Positions 1-52,368 of a stretch of 64,000 nucleotides of DNA are shown piece by piece (the stretch's first letter is position 1; every line of letters begins with the position of its first letter). This stretch comes from Octopus vulgaris (taxonomy: Eukaryota). The notes below the pieces were generated by a model. The model did not search any database. It saw nothing but the letters and a program-made list of their open reading frames with translations, and was not told the origin of the DNA. A program made the translations under genes and the position numbers. Where the stretch lies: NCBI GenBank assembly GCA_951406725.2, contig OX597817.1, positions 87,110,001 through 87,174,000 of the forward strand, given 5' to 3'.

Positions 1-2346
1 TAGGAATATTAATCCGCCACACACATAAGTATATACGTATTCAGCCTCATACACACTAACAAACATCCGCATATATCTGTACAGCCTCATGCACACCAAC
101 AAACTGAAACTCTAGTATGTTAGTATATTTACTATATTCCATGAAATTAAGAATTAATTTCACACACGGTAAGGGAAGTTGTGGTCTTTGTTCGCAAGGT
201 GACAACTATAGATATGTTGCACTATACAGGATTTCAACAGTGAAGCGCAGTCAAACTGGAACCTGATTTGATAAAGAGTTTTACAAACAAGAAAAACGTT
301 AGGAAAAATTGCGACCAATATTAATATGCATGAATCCTTTTAGTCTAAAGAGTCATTGGTATAGATTTAGATAAAGTAATGCATTGAATGCCGTGTGCAA
401 AATATTTTCAATAAAATATAATTTACCTCTTAGTAAGAGAATGAGAAAAGAAGCCTTGTGCACTTGTTTTCGATCCCTTAAGACAAGGGGAGATAATTTA
501 AAGAATTTATGATTTGATTTCTCAAAATCAATTTACATGTTTACAGAAAAAAATCAGTTCTTTGTCAGTAGACTACAGTGAATATGCATGGCAACACCCT
601 ATTCTCAATAAATTTGTGTTAATCTAATAAAATCGGATTCAAATACTCTAATCCTCAGAAAGTTTTATAACTCTAAATAATCCTGTATCAGACTGTAAGG
701 TTACATCAAACTGATATATTTAATCAATTATCTTACTTTTTTGGTATCAGTTTTAAAAAGACAATTGTTCGTAACTGCCAACGTTATCTATGAAAAATGA
801 ATTATATTAGTTATTTTATAATCAGAATCTTAAAAAAGAAAGTGACGGATTAAATCTGTCTGAATGTATAAATATTTACTGCACTCGATGCAGGAATGTA
901 AGACAAGAGGAACGAAATTAAATACTACGAGACATTATTATATTAGTTGACATGTCAATTTTACCTACCAAAAGTAGTAGCGAAACACTCTCAAATTACT
1001 TCCTGCACTTCCTAAACATAGAAAGATACGCTGGATAATGTAAATCATGAAATACAAGGGAACAGTAGGGTCACTGAAGGAACGTATTTGATCCAAGTTC
1101 TGTTGGACCTAGATTGTCTAGGGCAACAATAGCAGCAGCAGTAACTCGAATTACCTTCATATATCATATTGAAATATTAACTTGCTTCTTTCTCACATTC
1201 GAAGTTTATTACATTAATGTTTATGTTGCAGATTTGGTGTGACACTTTGTGGATGTCTTTTAATGTCTATATCCAAAAAATATTCATTTCTTTACGCACA
1301 CACACTTTTAGCACTGTACGGTCGATATTACAAATACCAGTAATATGTAGGAATCGATTCAATCAAAAGTATCACTCTACAATAAAGCGTTGGCATGTAA
1401 CTAGTAAAAACCAAACAAATTGAATGACTATTCCGGAATATTCCAAAACTCAGTATTCACATCAGCAAACTATTGTTATTTTTCTTTTTTTTTTTTGTTT
1501 TATTTTAATCATTGCTATTTAAACAATTTAGACAAAACAGGAAATAAAAGAACTTCACAATCAGTATTTGCTACTGAAAGTTAGTGATTGAACTTATCAC
1601 ATAATTAGGGCAAATTTTTTTCTTGTTTAATAAAAATAATATAAAATGCTACAATAAGAATCAAGAAGAAAAACAATTTCCATAAAATTTTAAAATTTGG
1701 AATGTTATAAGAAAATATTATGGCGTTCGAAAAATATATAAAAAAAATTTAAATAAATATTCAAAAATTTGCATTTTATTTTTAGTTTTAGTATGTTGTT
1801 GAAGAAGACATAAAACGTAAAATATTTTAGATTTCTCCTCAGAAAGGTATGTGAACATTATTTTAAGGGAGAGAAAAAATGTGGATCGAATTTGGATTGA
1901 AAGTAAATGCGATTTTGAAATATTTGAGTGAAATATTTAAAGACATCAACTGCCGATTTTTATATTCACAAGTTTTAGATAATTATTCTGTGAAACAAAA
2001 AAATAATGAATTCAAATTGAGCGAAGAAAGAATAAAACCGAACCATTAATGGATGTCCTATATTTCTCGTCTTGATTATTTTATTTGTCATCGAGAATTA
2101 TATTGTCAGATTGAGGGTGTAAAATTAATATTACCGAATAAAGCGAAGGCAATGAGTTGGCAGATTTTGATGCACTATGGATTAAAAGCAATTAGTTTCT
2201 TCCCACTTTTCTGAGGTCTAATTGCACTAGCATTGTTATTTTACCTCCATTAAAAAAATAATGGAACTGACAAGAAAACCCCAGTAATATTTTGAGGGTA
2301 TATATTCAATAGGTTTATTTGCTGTACTACTACTACTACTACTTTT

Positions 2347-2547
2347 CTCTTTTACTTGTTTCAGTCATTTGACTGCGGTCATGCTGGAGCACCACCTTTA
2401 GTCGAGCAAATCGACCCCAGGACTTATTCTTTGTAAGCCTAGTACTTATTCTATGGGTCTCTTTTGCCGAACCGATAAGTTTCGGGGACGTAAACACACC
2501 ACCATCGGTTGTCAAGCGATGTTGGGGAACAAACACAGACACACAAG

Positions 2548-2610
<63 letters not shown>
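2347..2610 (-). mobile_element. SINE family 1, 3' half only, ending in its internal (CA)n tract
   Basis: Matches 20488-20700 and 40620-40830. The tRNA-like head is missing and the sequence abuts a Dong fragment. Confidence 0.8.
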
Positions 2611-2614
<4 letters not shown>

Positions 2615-4087
2615 TATCATTCCCAGGGCACCTATGACAACAGGTATTGTTTTAGTCTTCAGGTTCCACATTTTGCTGATTTCTATTTCAAGATCTTTAT
2701 ATTTGCTCAGTTTTTGGTAGGTCTTGACAGATACGTTTATATCCATTGGGACAGTCATATCAATGAGGAGGCATGTTCTTTGTTTGAAGTCTTTCAATAT
2801 GATGTCTGGCCTATTTGCATCTATCTTTCTGTCAGTTTGAATGGTGAAGTTCCAGAGGAGTGAGATGTGATCATTTTCAAGCACTGGGGGTAGTTTGTGT
2901 TCCCACCAGTTTTTTTTCATGGGGCAAATCCAGGTTTTTGCAGATTACCCAGTGAATATATTGTGCAGCTCTATCATGCCTGTTGAGATACTCTGTAGGC
3001 GCTAGAAGACTGCACTTGGAGACCACATGATCAATAGTTTCATTTTGTTGCTGGCATACACGACACGTTGGGCTACTGCCGATCTTTAATATATTGGCCT
3101 GGTAGTTTCTTGTTGGTAGGCATTGATCTTGAGCTGCTATGATAAACCTCTCTGTTTCAGATTTTAAGCCAGAGGCCATTAGCCATTGATGGGTCAGGGC
3201 TTTGTCAACATCTGCATTATTCGCTCTCTTTGGGTATTTGCCATAGAGAGGTTTTTCTTGCCATTTATCATTCAGAATATCTAAGGCCGCAGATTTAGCA
3301 CGGGTTTTCATGAGCTTAGCTTTTTCTGTGCCTGTTTCTTGTATGTCTATCTCTAATTCCGAAATTTGTTGTATTCGGAATTCACTTAGATATTTCTTTG
3401 CCTGTTTTGTTACTGAGTATGATGCTTTCTTGTTTTCATGTTTTGAGACAAGTTTTAACATCCAGTCCTCAGAGCTTTTCAGGTAGGTGTCTAGGCCAAT
3501 TGTAGCAATCTTCATTGTTATTGCCAGTTGTAAAAGTCCACGGCCTCCCTCTTTTCTTGGCAGATAAAGTCGTTCTGTATCTGCCTTAGGGTGGTGCATT
3601 CTATGCATTGTCAACAGTTTTCGTATTTTTCTGTCAAGAATACATATTTCAGTAATTGACCAGTTAAAGATATTGAAACTGTAAGTCACGACTGGTATGG
3701 CTAACGCATTGATCGCTTCGATCCTGTTTCTCACATTCAGCTCTGTCTTGAGTATTGCTCTTACTCTGCGATAACATTCTCTCCTGATCCTTTCCTTCAT
3801 CTCTGAATGCCTTATTCCGTCTCCTTCAATTACCCCTAGATACTTGTAGTTCTCCGCTGGGTCTAATTCTTTTATGACATTCTGCTGGTCAAGGTTAACG
3901 TTAGATGTTTCTGTCATTTTTCCTTTGATAAAGGTAGCTTTTGCACACTTATCGAGGCCAAATTGCATTCTGCTGTCATCACTGAATTGTTTGACAATCG
4001 CTAGTAAGCTCTTGAGTTGTTGGTCATTTTTTGCAAAGAGCTTTAAATCATCCATGTAAATGAGATGATTTATATTTTTATCGAACA

Positions 4088-4090
<3 letters not shown>
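2611..4090 (-). mobile_element. R4/Dong-clade non-LTR retrotransposon fragment (family A), truncated at both ends and frameshifted
   Basis: ORF track shows the RT motif YMDDLKL, a CRVC..ETIDH..C zinc finger, RHD, and RPD..D restriction-like endonuclease motifs. It is highly similar to 32670-34150, has a 1-nt insertion in the T-run at ~2910, and its 5' end joins (TTA)n at 4090-4160. Confidence 0.92.
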
Positions 4091-4161
<71 letters not shown>

Positions 4162-4164
<3 letters not shown>

Positions 4165-5290
4165 CAGTGAGCTGGCAGAATCGTTAGCACGCCGGCCAAA
4201 ATGCTTAGCAGCATTTCGTCCGACTTTACGTTGTGAGTTGAAATTCCGCCGAGATCGATTTTGTTTTTCACTCTTTCAGGGTCGATAAATTAAGTACCAG
4301 ATGAGTACTGAGGTCGATGTAATTGACTTAACTCCTTCCCCAAAATTTCGTGCCTAGTGCCTTTTGTAGAAAAGATTATTATTTCTATTATTATTAGTAA
4401 GGCAGCGAGCTGGCAGAATCGTTAGCACGTCGACCAGAATGCTTAGCGGCATTTCGTCCGTCTTTACGTTCTGAGTTCAAATTCCGCCGAATTCGACTTT
4501 GCCTTTCATCCTTTCCTGGTTGAAAAATTTAGTACCTCTGAAATTCTGGGATCAATGTAATCGACTAGTCCCTTCTCATAAATTTTTCAGGCCTTGTCCC
4601 ATCGTTATTATTATTCTGGTAAAAAGCATTGAACTGGTAGAATCGTTACCGGGCCGGACATAATGCCTAATGGCATTTCTTTAGGCTTTACGTACTGAGT
4701 TCAAAGGCCGCCGAGAACACCTTTACCATTCATTTGTTTGGGGTCGATGAAATAAAGCACCAGTTTATCACTAGGGCTGATGTACTCGAATAGCAGCCCG
4801 AAATTTCAGGTTTTGTGCCTATTGAAGAAAGGATCATTATTTTTATTGTAAAAGGGCTAATTGGCAAAACTGTTAACGCGTACGACAAAATGTCTAATAG
4901 TATTTTTTCGATTCTTCAATTTAGTTCAAATCCTGCTGAGGTCAACTTTACCGAACAGCCTTTCGGAACCAATCAAATAAAGTACAGCCAAGAAGGCGGA
5001 AGTATAATCGAATCACCATCACGCTTCAAAGTGGCTGGCATTGTGACTAAATCAGAAACGATGTGGTAAGATATCAGAATCGTTAGATCATCGGAAGATA
5101 CGCTCTGTGGCATTTACATTTGTTCCGACTCTTTATATTCAAATTGCACTGAGTTTGCAGACGTTATTTAATATCATGACCGTATATATAGTGTGTCGAT
5201 AAAATAAAGTGCCAGTTATAGACTGGGAAAGATATGCGACTTATAATCTCCCATCAAAACTGTTGGCATTATGCTTAATTTAGGAACCAT
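4162..5290 (+). mobile_element. Head-to-tail array of about five tRNA-derived SINE family 2 copies
   Basis: Repeated unit gagctggcagaatcgttagc...gagttcaaattccgccga...gcctttcatccttt...gtcgataaa..aagtaccag starting near 4162, 4401, 4630, 4855 and 5065, with A- and B-box-like motifs. Confidence 0.8.
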
Positions 5291-5699
5291 TATTACTTGA
5301 TGTTATTACTTAACTATTCCATATTAAATGTCCTTTTGTTCAGAAGCTTGTTCGCCAAGGACGGAATCAAATATGGATTGGAGACGGTTTCGTACCACTG
5401 TGTGCGCATATGTGTGTGTATGTTATTGACATTATTACTTGAAGTAGTGGATTGGCCGAAATATCACCGGACTAGACCATATACCCTACAGTAATAAATT
5501 TAATCTTTCTATGTTCTGAGTTCATATCCTATGAGAGTAGAATTTACATTTAATACCTCCGAAAATGAGAAAATAGAGCAAGACTTGTTCTAATTAACGA
5601 TTATATAATTTCCTTACAAATTGTGGAGATGTATGTAAATCTGAGGAAGCTTAGGTTTACATACATCTGAGATTTTGTGTCAGAAAGAGCAACACATTA

Positions 5700-6035
5700 A
5701 ATAGCAACATCGACTATTTCTAGTAGAGCTTCATCCAAAGTGAGGACCGGCAATAACTTGGAATTCAAAGCCAAAAATGTTCCAATGCTCTACCATGAAA
5801 ATTAAGAAACTTACGCCATTTGAATGTTTTGAAAAAGGAACTGGACATCCTCCTATTTAGATACCTGAAGAAGTAACATCTTAGCATGAAGTACAGAAGA
5901 GAGTGGCAGTGTGAAACTCCATCATTCATTAAATGAGCCAACAACCAGGTAAAAAGCACACGCAAGAGTGGTGATAGGAAGTCACCCCACCTTGAAGAAT
6001 TCAACCACATAAAACACCTGTGAAATGGGTACAAA
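5700..6035 (+). mobile_element. Decayed 3' end of a CR1/L2-like LINE
   Basis: Frameshifted translation resembles a LINE ORF2 C-terminus (..NALP.KLRNL..LNVLKKELDILL..IPE). Confidence 0.4.
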
Positions 6036-6114
6036 GTCAGGGTGGTACCCTAGCATTGCCGCAGTCGCATAGCTGTAACGCATAAAAGGATGTGTGTGTA
6101 TTTGTATGTGTGTG

Positions 6115-6156
<42 letters not shown>

Positions 6157-6774
6157 AGTGTGTACCAGTATTTTCATGTGCGTTTGTGATGCTCTTTTCG
6201 TTGTCAGTGTTTCAAAAACATCTACATCTCTAAGTGTACAAATGGTCAAGAATATGTAGCATCTATCACATTTAAAACATTCTTGCTGTATCGTGAAAGA
6301 ATAGACAAAATTACATCTTAGAATTCTCTGGTGATACCATTCCATATTTAAACTAATGTTACAATTGCTTTATGTATTTTCCGTCAGAGTTGTAATTTAT
6401 ATCATAATTTTCCCTTTCAAATTTTTATAATACTTCGACCATAGATCAGCTAACCTGTTGGGAATATCTTCGGTACAATCACACGTATAGAGTGCTGCAA
6501 AACTATTTCTTATTCTGACTATAGATATCATATTTGAATTTTTTTATGCTTTCTTTTCTCTGTCAACCTTTGTTATTGTAAGATATCTTATTTTATTTTT
6601 CTCCTATTATCATTTCACTCAGACTATGGTAAACTGTTGAATTTTTCAAACCTACGTGCAGAGAATAAAACACGCGGACACACACACATACACACACACA
6701 CACACACACGACCTCTGCATACATATTTATAAGTATGTATGAATGCATGTGTGTATGAATGTATGAATATAAGC

Positions 6775-29992: not shown

Positions 29993-30245
29993 TGAAAGCC
30001 TGTGGCTTAGTGGTTAGGGTATTCGGCTCACGATCGTAAAGTCGTGAGTTCAATTCCCAGCGACGCGTTGTGTCCTCGAGCAAGACACTCAATTTCACGT
30101 TGCTCCAGTGCACTCAGCTGGAAAAAATAAGCAGTACTTGTATTTCGAAGGGTCAGCCTTGTCACACTCTATGTCAGGTTGAATCTCCCTGAGAACTACG
30201 TTAAAGGTTTGCGTGTCTGTTCCGTTGATTGGATCAACTGGAACC
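29993..30245 (+). mobile_element. tRNA-derived CORE-like SINE (family 3 relative)
   Basis: tggcttagtggtt A box, gagttcaattccc B box and tgtgtcctcgagcaagacact. The 3' part is shared with 38425-38570. Confidence 0.75.
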
Positions 30246-30722
30246 CTCTACTAGCGGCTATTACGCTATTTCTCTATTAGGGTCTAAACTGTCTAATGTA
30301 TACTTGTTTAAGATGGTAAAGTTCCATTTAAGAGAGATTAAGCTGTCATTTCTAGAGAGTCAAGCGATAGCGGAAAGGCTCTCACATTAGCTCGTTATGC
30401 TTTTACTTACTGAGTCTAGAGGAAGGGCCTTCTCTATGAGATTTCCAGCACACCGTGACTATTGAGCATAATGTTACAACTCTGTCAAGTCTGTAAATGC
30501 ATTCTATCATGGCTAAGATTAGTTAGCCAGAGATAATGTGGTTTCTATCACCATATATTCTGAAGTTACAATAGTCTGCTACGTTACATGCTTTTGGTGG
30601 TTTCTCTCGTGGAAGATTTGATCCTATGCGGCACCCTGCACACATCAACTTCTGTAAGAATTATTACACGCTTTTCAACTCTACTCAGAGGTGATTATCT
30701 AGGGACCTTCTCTTACTGTGGC

Positions 30723-30771
<49 letters not shown>

Positions 30772-30773
30772 GT

Positions 30774-31270
30774 TATTTGCCATGTAAATATGGCTAACCA
30801 CTAAGGGTGGGTATTACTGTAGCTTGTAGCCCTAGGAGAACATCTTCTCCAGCTGGCTGTTGGCCTATCGGTATTTGCAAAGGGAGGTCATCCTTCCCTC
30901 GTCAACCTAAGTGATACGCACAGACTGCAGTTTCTGGGTAGTGACCCGTCATCAGCGCACGACAATAACCGATTTTCGATGGAAGGGTCCCAATGCAAAT
31001 ACATAGTTCCTTTTTCCAGTGACTTTTCGTCACTGATCTTGAAAAAGTCCGTGCGGACTGCAGTCCGTGCGTATCACTTAGGTTGAAGAGGGAAGGTTGA
31101 CCTCCCTTTGCAAATACCGATAGGGCACTGAAAGTGTGTCAATAGCCAGCTGGAGAAGATGTTCTCCTGGGGCTACAAGCTACAGTAACATCCTTAGTGG
31201 TTAGCCATATTTAGATGGCAAATATACTTCACATTGCCGTGCAGTTACTGTCTATACCTCGTTCAGAGAT
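30774..31270 (-). mobile_element. ~500-bp non-coding long-hairpin element inserted in (TAA)n
   Basis: Inverted arms at 30774-30931 and 31057-31224, (TTA)n on both sides, and a central hammerhead. Confidence 0.75.
30923..31065 (-). ncRNA. Type III hammerhead ribozyme
   Basis: Minus strand reads gactgca-GTC^-cgcacg-[~90 nt]-cgtgcg-CTGATGA-c-gggt-cact-accc-a-GAAA-c-tgcagtc. All core nucleotides and three stems are present, with a C-A mismatch at the base of stem II. Confidence 0.8.
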
Positions 31271-31279
31271 TTATTATTG

Positions 31280-31346
<67 letters not shown>

Positions 31347-31347
31347 G

Positions 31348-31546
31348 TATCAGTATTATTATTATGATTACCTTTGCATACCTTCTAACACCGGAGATGT
31401 ACTACGGTGTCAGCTGTTCACTACCAGTGAACTAAGGTAACACCTCTTATTTTTCGAGCACCTTCTGGAGTATTCGAGCGGTTCCAAGCAATGCTGTTTT
31501 CTGCAAGTGCTCCACCCTTATTGCAGCCCCTATTTGTTCCATGTCC
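31348..31546 (-). mobile_element. Dong family B, short 5'-truncated 3' end
   Basis: Near-identical to 35738-35915 and flanked by (TTA)n. Confidence 0.85.
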
Positions 31547-32337: not shown

Positions 32338-35300
32338 CTATGTTTGACTTTTGCTTTATATTTGTACAAGTTGGCTCCAAGTCTCACCCAGAGACCTCAA
32401 GAGACAACAGGGTTGGAAGTTCATGTTGTTGTTATGCCTAGTGTGCCATATATTTGGGGGTGGGGATGTTGTACTAATGAATGTCAAAAAAAAAAAAAAA
32501 AGTTTTTTTTTTTTTTTTTTTTTTAAACCGAAAATTATGTTTGTTTTAAACCTTGAGATTACATAGAGAGTATTTTGCGTAGGATATGAGCAGTTCCCAT
32601 GAGCACTATCTTTTGAACTTCTGCCATTTTTGGGTTTCCTGGTATCTGAGTTAGGTAGCTATCAGCCCCTTTTGCTATCATTCCCAGGGCACCTATGACA
32701 ACAGGTATTGTTTTAGTCTTCAGCTTCCACATTTTGCTGATTTCTATTTCAAGATCTTTATATTTGCTCAGTTTTTGGTAGGTCTTGACAGATACGTTTA
32801 TATCGATTGGGACAGTCATATCAATGAGGAGGCATGTTCTTTGTTTGAAGTTTTTCAATATGATGTCTGGCCTATTTGCATCTATCTTCCTGTCAGTTTG
32901 AATGGTGAAGTTCCAGAGGAGTGAGATGTGGTCATTTTCAAGCACTGGGGGTGGTTTGTGTTCCCACCAGTTTTTTTCATGGGGCAAATCCAGGTTTTTA
33001 CAGATTACCCAGTGAATATATTGTGCAGCTCTATCGTGCCTGTTGAGATACTCTGTAGGCGCTAGAAGACTGCACTTGGAGACCACATGGTCAATGGTTT
33101 CATTTTGTTGCTTGCATACACGACACGTTGGACTGCTTCTGATCTTTAATATGTTGGCCTGGTAGTTTCTTGTTGGTAGGCATTGATCTTGAGCTGCTAT
33201 GATAAACCCCTCTGTTTCAGATTTTAAGCCAGAGGCCATTAGCCATTGATGGGTCAGGGCTTTGTCGATATCTGCATTATTCGCTCTCTTTGGGTATTTG
33301 CCATAGAGAGGTTTTTCTTGCCATTTATTATTCAGAATATCTAAGGCCGCAGTTTTGGCACGGGTTTTCATGCGCCTAGCTTTTTCTGTGCTTGTTTCTT
33401 GTATATCTATCTCTAATTCCGAAATTGGTTGTATTCGGAATTCACTTAGATATTCCTTTGCCTGTTTTGTGACTGAGTATGATGCTTTCTTGTTTTCATG
33501 TTTTGAGACAAGTTTTAGCATCCAGTCCTCAGAGTTTTTCAGGTAGGTGTCTAGGCCAATTGTAGCAATCTTCATTGTTATTGCCAGTTGCAAAAGACCA
33601 CGGCCTCCTCTTTTCTTGGCAGATAGAGTCGTTCTGTATCTGCCTTAGGGTGGTGCATTCTATGCATTGTCAACAGTTTCCTTATTTTTCTGTCGAGCTG
33701 ACATATTTCAGTAATTGACCAGTTAACAATATTGAAACTGTAAGTCACGACTGGTATAGCTAATGCATTGATTGCTTCGATCCTGTTTCTTGCATTCAGC
33801 TCTGTCTTGAGTATTGCTCTCACTCTTCGATAGCATTCTCTCCTGATCCTTTCCTTCATCTCTGAATGCCTTATTCCGTTCCCTTCAATTATCCCTAGGT
33901 ACTTGTAGCTCTCCGCTGGGTCTAGTTCTTTTATGACATTCTGTTGGTCAAGGTTAACGTTAGATGTTTCTGTCATTTTTCCTTTGATAAAGGTAGCCTT
34001 TGCACATTTATCGAGGCCGAATTGCATTCTGATGTCGTCACTGAATTGTTTGACTATCGCTAGTAAGCCCTTGAGTTGTTGATCATTTTTTGCAAAAAGC
34101 TTTAAATCATCCATGTAAACGAGATGATTTATATTTTTATCAAACATTTTATACCCGTACTGCGCGTCATTGAGCAGCTTTGAGAGAGGTATTAAGGATA
34201 AACAAAAGAGGAGTGGTGACAGTGAGTCACCCTGGAAAATGCCACACGAAATTTTTACATCACCAGCATTTAGGGATTCACTGTCACTGTTCAGCGTTAG
34301 TGTGGTTCTCCATGATCTCATACTTACAGTCAAGAAGTTTCGCAGAGTTGGTGCTATCTTATACATTTCAAGGCATTTCCTAATCCAGCTATGTGGTAGG
34401 CTATCAAAAGCCTTTTTATAGTCTATCCAGGCTATTGATAAGTTTTTGTGTCGTTTGTGACAATCTTCTAAGATCATCTTATTGATGAGTAGTTGGTCTT
34501 TACAGCCGTAGGATCCACGTTTACATCCTTTCTGTTCATTAGGGAATATGCTGCTGTCTGTTAAAAAACTATAGGTATATTCCGTCAGGACAGATGTTAG
34601 TGTTTTGTACATAGTTGTTAAGCAGGTTATGGGTCTATAGTTTTTTGGTTCATTTGTTTCTTCACTTTTTGGAAGCAGGAATGTTAACCCATTAACTAGC
34701 CAAGGAGGCATCCTACTAGGGTGTTGCAAAACATCATTGTACAGTTCTGTTAGCAGTTCATGGCTCTCTGGGAAGGCATTCAGCCAGAAGTTAGGAATTT
34801 TATCCTTTCCTGGAGACTTCCATTTGCTTGACCTCCTGAGAGCAGATCTTATATCTTCTACCTTGACACCCTCCCACTTTTGCTCTTCTAAGGGGTCCAG
34901 TTCTGTAGATATTCTGTCAATCCAGGGGGCCTTTTCGTTGTGTGTTTTTTCTTCTGCCCAGATTTTATTCCAAAATCTCTGCACTTCTTCTTTTGATGGT
35001 ACAGACCCTGCAGTAAACGCTGTTTTTCCTATCTTCCTGTAAAAATTCTTGGTGTTATTTTTGAACATGTTGTTGTCCTTGAAAAATCTAACACGCTTTT
35101 CATACCTCGCTATGCGGGCAGCTTTGGCAGATACCTTTTGTTTGATGGTTTCTATGGTGGCATCAATATCAAGTATAGTTTTCATATTGTATTTTTTCAG
35201 TAATTTTTGGGTTTTTGTAGGTTTGGTAATCTTGTGAGCCTTAAGGTTTTTCAAATATTCAATGTCAGATCTAAATATTTTAATTTGTTGTTGCAGACGC

Positions 35301-35674
35301 TCTTGCCAAGAAGGCTTTTTGTGGGACTGTTGCCGTTTTCTAATCTTTACACCACATAGGATCGTTGAGATTTTCGCGGATGCATAGTATAGGTGGTTGA
35401 GGTTTGTGATATCAACATCATTAACTGAAATTATATCCTTAAGTGCAAGCCGGATTTTACCAATTATTTTCATGTTTTGGTTAGAGTTGCGGATTTTAGG
35501 AAGTGTATCACGCTCATCCATGCTGGTTTCTTTAATTTTCAGCCATTCAATCATGATTTGATTTTTTAGCTCATGTAGTTCTGTTGGGTCAATATTTGTA
35601 TGACTTTCTTTATCTATTTGATGCTCATCTGTCTTAGTGTTTATGATTGGTTCAGGGCGTATTTCACTTTGCCT
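32338..35674 (-). mobile_element. R4/Dong-clade retrotransposon family A, 5'-truncated, with complete 3' UTR and (TAA)n tail
   Basis: ORF of ~1000 codons broken by a single frameshift, a ~220-bp 3' UTR, and (TTA)n on both flanks. Confidence 0.95.
32559..35674 (-). pseudogene. Reverse transcriptase, CCHC finger and restriction-like endonuclease ORF
   Basis: Motifs KSPGKD, NYRPITCL, EQKG, IDYKKAFDS, GIFQGDSLSPLLF, YMDD, CRVC..H..C, RHD, RPD and KYKDL. There is a 1-nt deletion near 33610 relative to the 2611-4090 copy, and the frame stays open upstream of ATG 35554 up to the truncation. Confidence 0.93.
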
Positions 35675-35675
35675 A

Positions 35676-35716
<41 letters not shown>

Positions 35717-49399: not shown

Positions 49400-49580
49400 A
49401 GAGTAACCACAAAAATGTGAAACAAGGTAGAAAAATAGTACTCGAATACCGGCGGAAGAGTAGTATGCTGAATCGAAACTATCCGACGAATGGGAACGTG
49501 AAACTCTGAATAAGAGTTTTTTAAAATGTTTTTGCAGTTTTAATAATAAAGTTTGTGTGTATATATATATATTTCTTTTT

Positions 49581-52368
49581 AAAAAAACCCGCTTCTCTAG
49601 CCATGTCTCTTTCCTAAGCCGCTGCCTACATCACCGACTCATCCCTAAAGGTTTCCGCCTCCACTTCCACCCTACTCTCCACTCGGATTCTTCCATCTTA
49701 CCCATACTCTGCACCACATCTTACCGCCTTATGCGGGCCACCATTCGCTCCAATCTCTCTAAACTACATGCCATCAACCGCCTTCTTCCTCCTGCTTTCT
49801 CCACCTTCTTCTCCTCTCTGCCGCCTCTCTATGCTCCAAACACGCTACGCTTCATTATCCATTTGAATCAACTCTTCCATCAATTTCTTTCTGATACCAA
49901 ACTTCGTAAACTCCAATCACTCTTCCATTCCACCCTACCCGACGCCACTACCCCAACTCCTCCACCACCCTTCTCCCCTCCCGATAGGCTCCATCCACCC
50001 ACACCTAACCCCACTGCCCCTCCCTACAACCCCTTCTCCCCTCCCGATAGGCTCCATCCACCTACACCTAACCCTACTGCTCCCCCCACACACACACCTC
50101 CCCAATCCCTCCCCCTCAGACCTCCACGAGACCTACCACCCCTCCTACTTCTATTCCACCCACCCCTTCTCCACTTCCGTCTGTTGTTACCATTCCCCCC
50201 GATCTTCCCCTCTCTGCGGCTGAACGCTCCGTCCTTGGTAGGGGTCTGCGTTTCATCCCCCTCACTCCATCCTGTAAGGAATTCCAGACGCGAGTTGATG
50301 TCCACAGCTTTGTGCGCCGTGTCCGGTTGGGTGCGCATTACCACGACTCGCCACCCACACCCAACGAAGAGGACTGCTTCACTGGCCTGGGCCGCCGACC
50401 ATCCCCGTGGACGCCTGCCCCTGGCCAGATCCTAGCAGTGGATCTTTTCGCGGGCACTTGTCAGCGTGCATTGGAGCGGTTCAACTTCTCCAGGCGCCAA
50501 CACCGCCTCAACATCTCCCCGGCTGAGCTCTTGGCTCTTCGTTCCCTCCAACGGCGCGCTGACATTATCATCAAACCGGCTGACAAGGGTGGAGCTGTAG
50601 TGGTTTGGCGCGCGGACCTCTATAGGGCCGAGGCTTTCCGCCAACTCAATGACACCTCCTTCTATTCCCCTCTGCCCTCTAACCCCACACGTAGCTACCA
50701 ACAGACGGTATCCTCTACTGTCCACGACCTCATCTCGTCCTCCCGTCTCCCCCGCACCGCATCCAACCTAATTGTGCGAACCCCACGTATCCCCACCATT
50801 TACTTCCTCCCCAAAATCCACAAACCCAACAACCCTGGCCGCCCCATCGTCTCCGCCTGTAACTGTCCCACGGAGCTCATCTCTAAATACCTCGACTGTG
50901 TCCTTGCCCCCCTAGTGGCATCTCTTCCCTCCCACATCCACGATACCAACCATGCTCTCCGGCTTTTCAACTCTTTCTCCTTTCCTCCCGGCTCCTCCAA
51001 AATCCTTTTTACTATGGACATCCAAAGCCTCTATACTGTTATCCCTCACCACGAAGGACTGCAGGCCCTTCGACACTTTCTTGACCTCCGCTCTAACCCT
51101 GTACCAGACACCTCCACACTCATTCGTCTGGCCGAACTTGTCCTTACTCTGAACTGCTTCTCGTTCGCGGGCGAGTTCTACCATCAGGTCTCGGGAGTGG
51201 CCATGGGAACGCGAATGGGCCCCAACTATGCGAACCTGTTCGTTGGCTATGTTGAGGCCCAAATATTCTCTAATTTCACTGGTCCCACTCCTGAACTATA
51301 TGGTCGTTACATTGACGACATTATCGGTGCCACCTCTCACTCTCCCGTGAACATCTAGATTCCTTCCTCTCTTTCGTCCAATCTTTCCATCCAGCCCTCC
51401 ACTTCACTTCCACTATCTCCAACGCCTCTGTCTCCTTCCTCGACATTTCGGTTAGCATTCTTCACTGCACTCTTACCACCTCCATTCACTACAAACACAC
51501 AGACTCACACTCATACCTCAACTTCTCTTCCTCCCATCCAGGACACACCAAGCTTTCCATCCCCTATTCCCAATTCCTCCGTCTACGTAGGCTCTGTAGT
51601 GACGACCATGACTTTGAGACTCAGTCTCAACGTATGGCTCACCACTTCACCCTACGTGGATACCCCCTCACCACTATCCACACCGCCCTTGCCAGAGCAC
51701 GGTCCGTGGACCGTGTATCTGCTCTCTCTCCCCGAACCCGCCCTGTAGTCTCCCGCCTCCCTTTTCCCCTCACTTACCACCCCACGACCCTACGTCTCCA
51801 ACGCACCATTCTTCGAGTTTTCCGTCATCTTCAGTCCGACCCGTCCACTTCACACCTCTTCCCTAACCGACCCCTCCCCTCTTTCAAACGAGCCCACAAC
51901 CTTCGAGACCTTTTGGTCCATAGCTCCTTCCCTGACCCTACCTTCCAACCCGGCTCGTTCCCCTGCTCCCGCCCACGTTGCCGCACTTGCCCATACCTCT
52001 CCAACACCACCCTCCTCACTAGCACCCACCATCGACCCTATCCCATCATCCACTCCTTCACCTGCACCTCCAGCAATATTATCTATTGCGTCTCTTGCTC
52101 TCTCTGCCATTCCTTGTACATCGGACAAGCGGGACGCCGCTTGGCTGACCGGTTCGCGGAACACCTTCGTGACATCCACCTTGCGAACGACACACCGGTC
52201 TCACGCCATTTCCGCTCCACCGGTCACTCCTTGCAACACCTATCTGTGTTCGGTTTGTCCTTACACAGAGGCCATCCGGATTCCCGTTTGCGCCGTGAAC
52301 AGGAATTAATCTTCTCTCTTCGCTCTTATACGCCATTTGGTCTCAACTCTCCCCCCCTCCTCATCTAA
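49581..52368 (+). pseudogene. Penelope RT / GIY-YIG endonuclease polyprotein, frameshifted at ~50100 and ~51345
   Basis: HVSFLSRC..LIPKG, GLRF, KPADKG, LPKIHK..PGRPIVS, DIQSLYT, GVAMG, RYIDD, FLDI, the CSRPRCRTC linker, NIIY..C..C..YIGQ..R..EH and GLN. Confidence 0.93.

Follow-up and report, generated by a model that had tools for sequence, protein, structure and literature searches.

Metazoan non-LTR retrozymes are described in PMC7229834 and bioRxiv 10.64898/2026.07.22.740005 as non-coding monomers of 150-450 bp with a GC content under 45-50% and one type I hammerhead per unit. Insertions of Penelope-like elements, according to PMC8557442 (Craig et al. 2021), are truncated at the 5′ end, may be partly tandem, carry an inverted 5′ copy and, at one end, a tail of 30-40 bp, and are biased towards microsatellites. 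PMC11167929 (Frangieh et al. 2024) ties the tail to two internal positions at which reverse transcription can start, and shows that AT-rich DNA is nicked.

Here, we compare these systems with a locus of Octopus vulgaris that lies in a 64,000-nt stretch of DNA, analysed as a whole and referred to below as the window. A sequence-only reading had taken this locus for a rod-like element with a type III hammerhead at its tip, which the TAA-specific machinery of Dong may mobilise. We consider it highly probable that the element is one insertion of a multi-copy, tandem-monomer type I hammerhead repeat of about 354 nt (a non-LTR retrozyme), with the type III fold limited to its inversion junction. Penelope-like RT/GIY-YIG enzymes are the likely agents of its copying and insertion.

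Structure of the window copy

The window copy is made of two pieces, a 5′-truncated direct monomer and an inverted second copy. Together they form the long arms at 30774-30931 and 31057-31224, which are present as first described and pair in three blocks with 93-94% complementarity. Unit positions refer to the natural copy L030 (352 nt). In window coordinates, the parts are as follows.

30723..30773, no strand: (TAA)n tract, left half of the insertion site (from the sequence)
30774..31048, minus strand: direct 5′-truncated monomer (blastn against L030, 88% identity; unit about 9-298 of 352)
30908..30970, minus strand: family type I hammerhead (alignment and pair counts)
31017..31035, minus strand: small hairpin, an ordinary part of the monomer found in other copies at the same unit position
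31047..31056, no strand: copy-specific junction (sequence; single copy; depth collapse)
31050..31058, minus strand: GUC 31058-31056 and stem I strand 31055-31050 of an incidental, predicted type III fold (constrained fold equal to the minimum energy)
31057..31279, plus strand: inverted second copy, the other arm (92% identity; unit 127-352), reaching the family's 'long' 3′ end
31234..31279, plus strand: 'tail' of about 45 nt between the two family 3′ ends, on one side only (two end classes in 29/29 loci)
31280..31347, no strand: (TAA)n tract, right half of the insertion site (from the sequence)

The direct piece stops near the family's 'short' 3′ end, and the element ends at 31279 rather than at 31270, where its end had been placed. 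The small hairpin at 31035-31017 is indeed present; however, it is no special insert in loop I, as had been supposed, and belongs to the ordinary monomer. Contigs from runs labelled organism A, C and D cover both halves of the window copy. None of the runs that contain the sequence is recorded as RNA, and such contigs cannot show ends or strand. Upstream of the element, window positions 30000-30230 hold a tRNA-like SINE head, with a weak Rfam tRNA match (L102 451-512) below the gathering score.

A multi-copy family of tandem monomers

A search of the genome (2.8 Gb in 227 contigs) with the element's DNA gave 4200 first-look candidates, of which 40 were scored. A 21-nt stretch at the family 3′ end, in a pattern that also demanded A or T 14 bases further on, had 858 exact matches in the genome, and the control had 0. 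Among the first 100 terminus matches listed, 44 run on into the next monomer by hand count, and the remaining 56 lead into sequence that is clearly (TA)n (41), TA-rich (4), (TAA)n (1) or other DNA (10). Two odd continuations past the terminus (L196 and L197) turned out to be flanking DNA. The natural dimer L120 measures 354 nt from cut site to cut site, with 42% GC and two intact cores, and the circular fold of this unit has a z of −3.1 against 60 shuffles. The longest frame noted in the monomer is 30 codons. The view that this is a multi-copy, non-autonomous, hammerhead-bearing retroelement is supported.

A sister family has a 357-nt monomer (233/362 identical) at 30 loci (L216-L245), with trimers in L226 and L240. 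It is the younger of the two, its copies being about 97% alike; it forms dimers as well as trimers, carries a U3 core and is the best candidate for RNA tests.

Three features by which non-LTR retrozymes are recognised were found: a short, low-GC monomer, a type I hammerhead in each unit and tandems with at least two complete hammerheads. Compared with the metazoan non-LTR retrozymes of Cervera and de la Pena (2020) and of Li, Clavereau and Pollet (2026), the family is alike in its size of about 354 nt, its 42% GC, its type I hammerhead per unit, its partial tandems up to dimers and trimers, its duplications of more than 4 bp, its predicted dimer-dependent cleavage and the presence of Penelope-like elements in the same genome. 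It differs in that most copies are dispersed, truncated and often inverted, in that it is known here from DNA alone and in that no homologous autonomous repeat was found among the Penelope-like loci sampled. An undescribed kind of element had been suggested; the window element instead fits metazoan non-LTR retrozymes together with a Penelope-like insertion structure. Since the element itself is unexceptional within a known class, the idea that it represents a new type III family should be given up. The literature searched held no description of the family, of the type I-to-III permutation or of the cassette treated below, a weak negative result from a search limited to papers, largely open-access ones; the main text of PMC13282606 mentions neither ribozyme nor retrozyme.

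The family hammerhead

In the monomer, a palindromic loop of 4 nt separates GAAAC from the GUC behind it, and stem I is closed by bases past the cut. The corresponding parts in the window are a bulged stem I, CUGAUGA at 30955-30949, stem II at 30948-30935, GAAAC at 30934-30930 and the palindromic stem III/loop 3. The cut is predicted to fall after a second GUC, at 30925-30923, which the sequence-only reading overlooked and which is the family's own type I site. Rfam gave no hammerhead match at the gathering score in the window, nor one at E up to 10 in 30600-31400, nor any in four loci examined, three of them other family loci.

We found 71 distinct segments and aligned 67, omitting two because of internal deletions and two because of an indel of 1 nt. 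Across these 67 copies, 91.0% of the cells in the named type I structure are paired, against 87.8% after shuffling (0/500 shuffles as high) and 20-51% when the structure is slid along the alignment. Double-change cells number 48, against 15.2 in shuffled alignments; these covariation counts overstate independence, as the aligned sequences are relatives whose shared descent inflates the figures and 29 loci entered the sample through their exact core. The core pair C3-G8 is CG in 55 copies, UA in 8 and UG in 4, and is broken in 0/67; the same U3-A8 variant is given in PMC4209133 (Cervera and de la Pena 2014). At stem II, pair 10.2-11.2 is GC in 38 copies and AU in 23, and pair 10.1-11.1 is unpaired in 54 of the 67. 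Therefore, the C-A mismatch at the closure of stem II, which had been suggested as a possible cause of reduced activity in this copy, is the family state and no damage peculiar to the copy. The sister family retains stems I-III with different letters.

For L120, the fold energy of the dimer with an 8-bp stem III is −121.1, next to a free minimum of −121.2 and a value of −113.5 for the monomer; this preference agrees with the dimer model in PMC4209133. In the alignment and the modelled folds, the family ribozyme is a type I hammerhead with a short palindromic stem III, and its cleavage is predicted from folding energies only.

Insertion footprint

The footprint was read from 29 loci chosen only by the exact type I core. 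The 3′ ends of these loci fall into a short class (16 loci, unit 299-309) and a long class (13 loci, unit 347-352), about 45 nt apart. An inverted 5′ piece is present in 11/29 loci and no inverted arm in 18/29, and tandem pieces occur in 11/29. The flanks are (TA)n in 18 loci, (TAA)n in 0 and other DNA in 11. At 7 of the 11 non-microsatellite sites there is a duplication of at least 11 nt, one mismatch allowed; these duplications are AT-rich and some may be due to chance. In 8 of the 9 copies in which the inverted arm reaches the terminus, that arm starts at the end class opposite to that of the direct copy, and the window copy conforms to this pattern.

Within the same core-selected sample (L103-L131), 11/29 copies begin at unit 70-89, compared with 5 at unit 10-69. 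This cluster hints at a transcript start, or at a stop in copying, just upstream of stem I.

Set against the Penelope-like insertions described in PMC8557442 and PMC11167929, the family is alike in its 5′ truncation, partial tandems, inverted 5′-truncated copy, one-end tail, two 3′ ends and microsatellite or AT-rich targets; its tail of about 45 nt is slightly above the 30-40 bp of PMC8557442. It also shares with Penelope hammerheads, as described in PMC4209133, a helix III that is both small and palindromic, along with the U3-A8 variant of the core. Unlike endonuclease-bearing Penelope-like elements, the family unit lacks an RT-endonuclease ORF. In the portions of the literature compared, the inverted arm and the two-ended tail are described for Penelope-like elements and not for retrozymes. 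That a tandem monomer devoid of an ORF bears the full Penelope footprint, with two 3′ ends and a tail that changes place between the direct and the inverted arm, backs the proposed link between retrozymes and Penelope-like elements.

We propose that tandem units would be transcribed, that self-cleavage of the RNA would occur chiefly in dimers, by way of the palindromic stem III, and that circles could form. Once AT-rich DNA had been nicked by a Penelope-like protein, reverse transcription would set out from one or the other of two internal sites. The inverted copy would be added by a further priming event or by a template switch.

Candidate partners in the genome

Young autonomous Penelope-like ORFs are present in the same genome, with 1310-1312 aa in 9/9 loci fetched, and there are also 781-aa frames. 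By the zinc-finger motif given in PMC8557442, the 1310-1312-aa family is assigned to the Neptune/Nematis type. In the four copies examined, its 3′ ends lie at two sites separated by about 55 nt, a 5′ piece is present in inverted orientation and the flanks are (TA)n. This very young family (L186-L194) has a long Asn-rich insert and a tandem unit of about 4.6 kb, and the core of its hammerhead-like motif ends in C where A9 is expected. In a second young family (L276-L283), a 781-aa RT/GIY-YIG frame stands behind another long frame, and the repeat carries a U3-A8 minimal hammerhead.

The search for a parent covered the endonuclease fragment near L034, 24 wider loci, the 1312-aa family and Pfam GIY-YIG matches. 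In this non-exhaustive sample, none of the Penelope-like loci yielded an autonomous element whose repeat is a homologue of the monomer, so that it is from the footprint alone that we infer the partner. Monomer matches near Penelope-like loci (L072, L080, L099/L133, L146, L148, L156, L171, L281 and L282) appear to be separate insertions; L034, L133 and L282 were inspected over their full length.

Origin of the type III fold

How did a type III fold come to lie in a copy of a type I family? The letters of the minus-strand core are where they had been reported, with GUC at 31058-31056, stem I at 31055-31050 paired with 30961-30956, CUGAUGA at 30955-30949, stem II, and GAAAC at 30934-30930. The type III rod is also sound as a fold of the window copy, whose minus strand folds at −311.0 kcal/mol (z −26.8; 0/100 shuffles as low); when the type III helices are enforced, the energy is unchanged from the free minimum, and the predicted fold makes up about 0.22 of the ensemble. 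The family type I fold is computed to be shut out in the full hairpin RNA (about 1e-23), and as a monomer without the arm it is predicted to be rare in this copy (about 1e-5).

The rod is not, however, the architecture of the family. The type III junction has a single genome match, at this locus, both with an exact 25-nt pattern and with a looser 18-nt pattern, against 29 exact matches for a type I core of 44 nt. Across 31049-31054, the summed depth of contigs falls to 7.9, 1.2, 0 and 0 in four runs, a collapse in 4/4, compared with 167-6607 in the preceding bin and 1110-74430 in the following one. Among 79 loci examined, some of which overlap, there are 38 distinct inversion junctions, and all differ. 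Six of them stop within unit 120-136, and on inspection the window copy alone offers a GUH triplet together with a partner for stem I. The type III topology is confined to the junction of the window copy and is not inherited by the family.

The segment 31047-31055 is a 9-nt duplicate of 31063-31071 and lies beside a 10-bp palindrome at 31056-31065; it is because of this palindrome and this duplication that the window copy has a type III junction. The inverted copy would have stopped here inside the stem III palindrome, and the 9-nt duplication would have supplied the partner for stem I. Because stem III is palindromic and stem I nearly self-complementary, the core would have been rebuilt as type III by accident. 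According to PMC4209133, a longer helix III in such motifs results in cleavage mostly at non-physiological magnesium, and by analogy weak ribozyme activity of the window copy is possible. This copy may be a working natural permutation from type I to type III, made in one step by an inversion of the Penelope style. Formal type III topology is all that it has in common with type III hammerhead systems; unlike the known system compared, the window element is without LTRs, a primer site and a 4-bp duplication, and its topology is not inherited. That a palindromic stem III and an inversion can permute a hammerhead in one step calls for caution with ribozyme calls made at a single locus.

Alternative explanations

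We weighed three other accounts of this element. The proposal of a distinct rod-like family, capped by a type III hammerhead and carried by TAA-specific Dong/R4 machinery, draws on the tie between the type III fold and the minimum energy in the window copy, and on the position of that copy in (TAA)n about 1 kb from a LINE whose 3′ end abuts (TAA)n. This LINE (window 32338-35677, minus strand) encodes an RT, has a frame break between frames of 699 and 361 codons, and is one that we take to be of the R4/Dong type from its C-terminal restriction-like endonuclease motifs. Further broken RT-bearing LINE copies lie at window 2877-4289 (minus strand) and 49464-52368 (plus strand). The two elements share the (TAA)n setting at this locus, but the ends differ, no 3′ end is shared and the monomer resembles the neighbouring LINE no more than chance predicts (best E 0.78). 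Flanks in the family are mostly (TA)n, and mobilisation by Dong finds (TAA)n ends in none of the core-selected copies. It had also been argued that the ribozyme strand reads (TAA)n as the Dong copies do; this argument carries nothing, since an inverted insertion has a 3′ end on either side, of which one here reads into (TAA)n and the other into (TTA)n. With the junction single-copy besides, we regard this account as very improbable. A terminal-inverted-repeat DNA element (MITE) would explain the long inverted arms of the window copy. However, arm length differs from copy to copy, most of the core-selected loci are without an inverted arm, the tail makes the ends asymmetric, and 5′ truncations and tandems are common; fixed terminal inverted repeats with a short fixed duplication are ruled out by the variable arms, and a MITE is the least credible of the accounts.

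An unlikely but somewhat more plausible view is that the copies do not pass through a retrozyme life cycle themselves and are mere solo pLTRs, truncated ends that stem from an autonomous Penelope-like element. The footprint is the same as that of Penelope-like insertions. Moreover, an ATG-started frame of 30 codons spans the tail in several subfamilies, in a position that matches the ORF start in the 1312-aa family, which suggests descent from such an element; as a lead only, it may be a relic of the parent's ORF start, although stop-free frames of that length are not rare by chance. Against solo pLTRs, the sequence that precedes the monomer start is the end of the previous monomer and not an ORF, in keeping with the 44 of the first 100 listed termini that enter a next monomer, none of the listed termini leads into an identifiable coding region, and dimers and trimers exist. 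We therefore favour a non-LTR retrozyme, probably inserted by Penelope-like enzymes. Points that speak against this reading are the negative outcome of the parent search in the loci sampled, the lack of Rfam hammerhead matches, the unpaired state of 10.1-11.1 in most copies, the predicted rarity of the monomeric type I fold in the window copy and the slightly long tail.

An ORF1-only cassette next to hammerhead cores

Two family loci run on into an ORF1-only cassette with a zinc knuckle. The cassette (L034:1312-2880, L134, L135 and L036-L065) is about 1.55 kb long and has an end that resembles a poly(A) signal; its ORF1 is presumably Tx1-like. A search with the cassette protein gave 14298 first-look candidates, 150 of which were scored; the sample consists of the closest relatives of one cassette and is not genome-wide. 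Among the best 30 cassette loci, 27 have a recognisable end, and in 22 of these 27 a hammerhead core lies 19-38 nt downstream. The other five ends comprise two that enter another cassette and three at non-hammerhead sites. The adjacent cores belong to several divergent hammerhead families, and most sites show a duplication of 15-21 nt.

A tentative possibility, to which we give slightly less than even weight, is that the retrozyme superfamily is itself parasitised, an ORF1-only element of about 1.55 kb inserting 19-38 nt upstream of the cores in several hammerhead families and then travelling with them under Penelope-like mobilisation. If genome-wide, the siting of an ORF1-only element directly ahead of hammerhead cores would amount to a new target preference. 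Several cassette insertion sites have a TATA-like stretch some 25-35 nt upstream of them; therefore, the target of the cassette may be a transcription start, an idea that we offer as such. At L066, L067 and L069, the cassette occurs in head-to-tail arrays with units of about 1.7-1.9 kb, intact frames of about 450 residues and no hammerhead.
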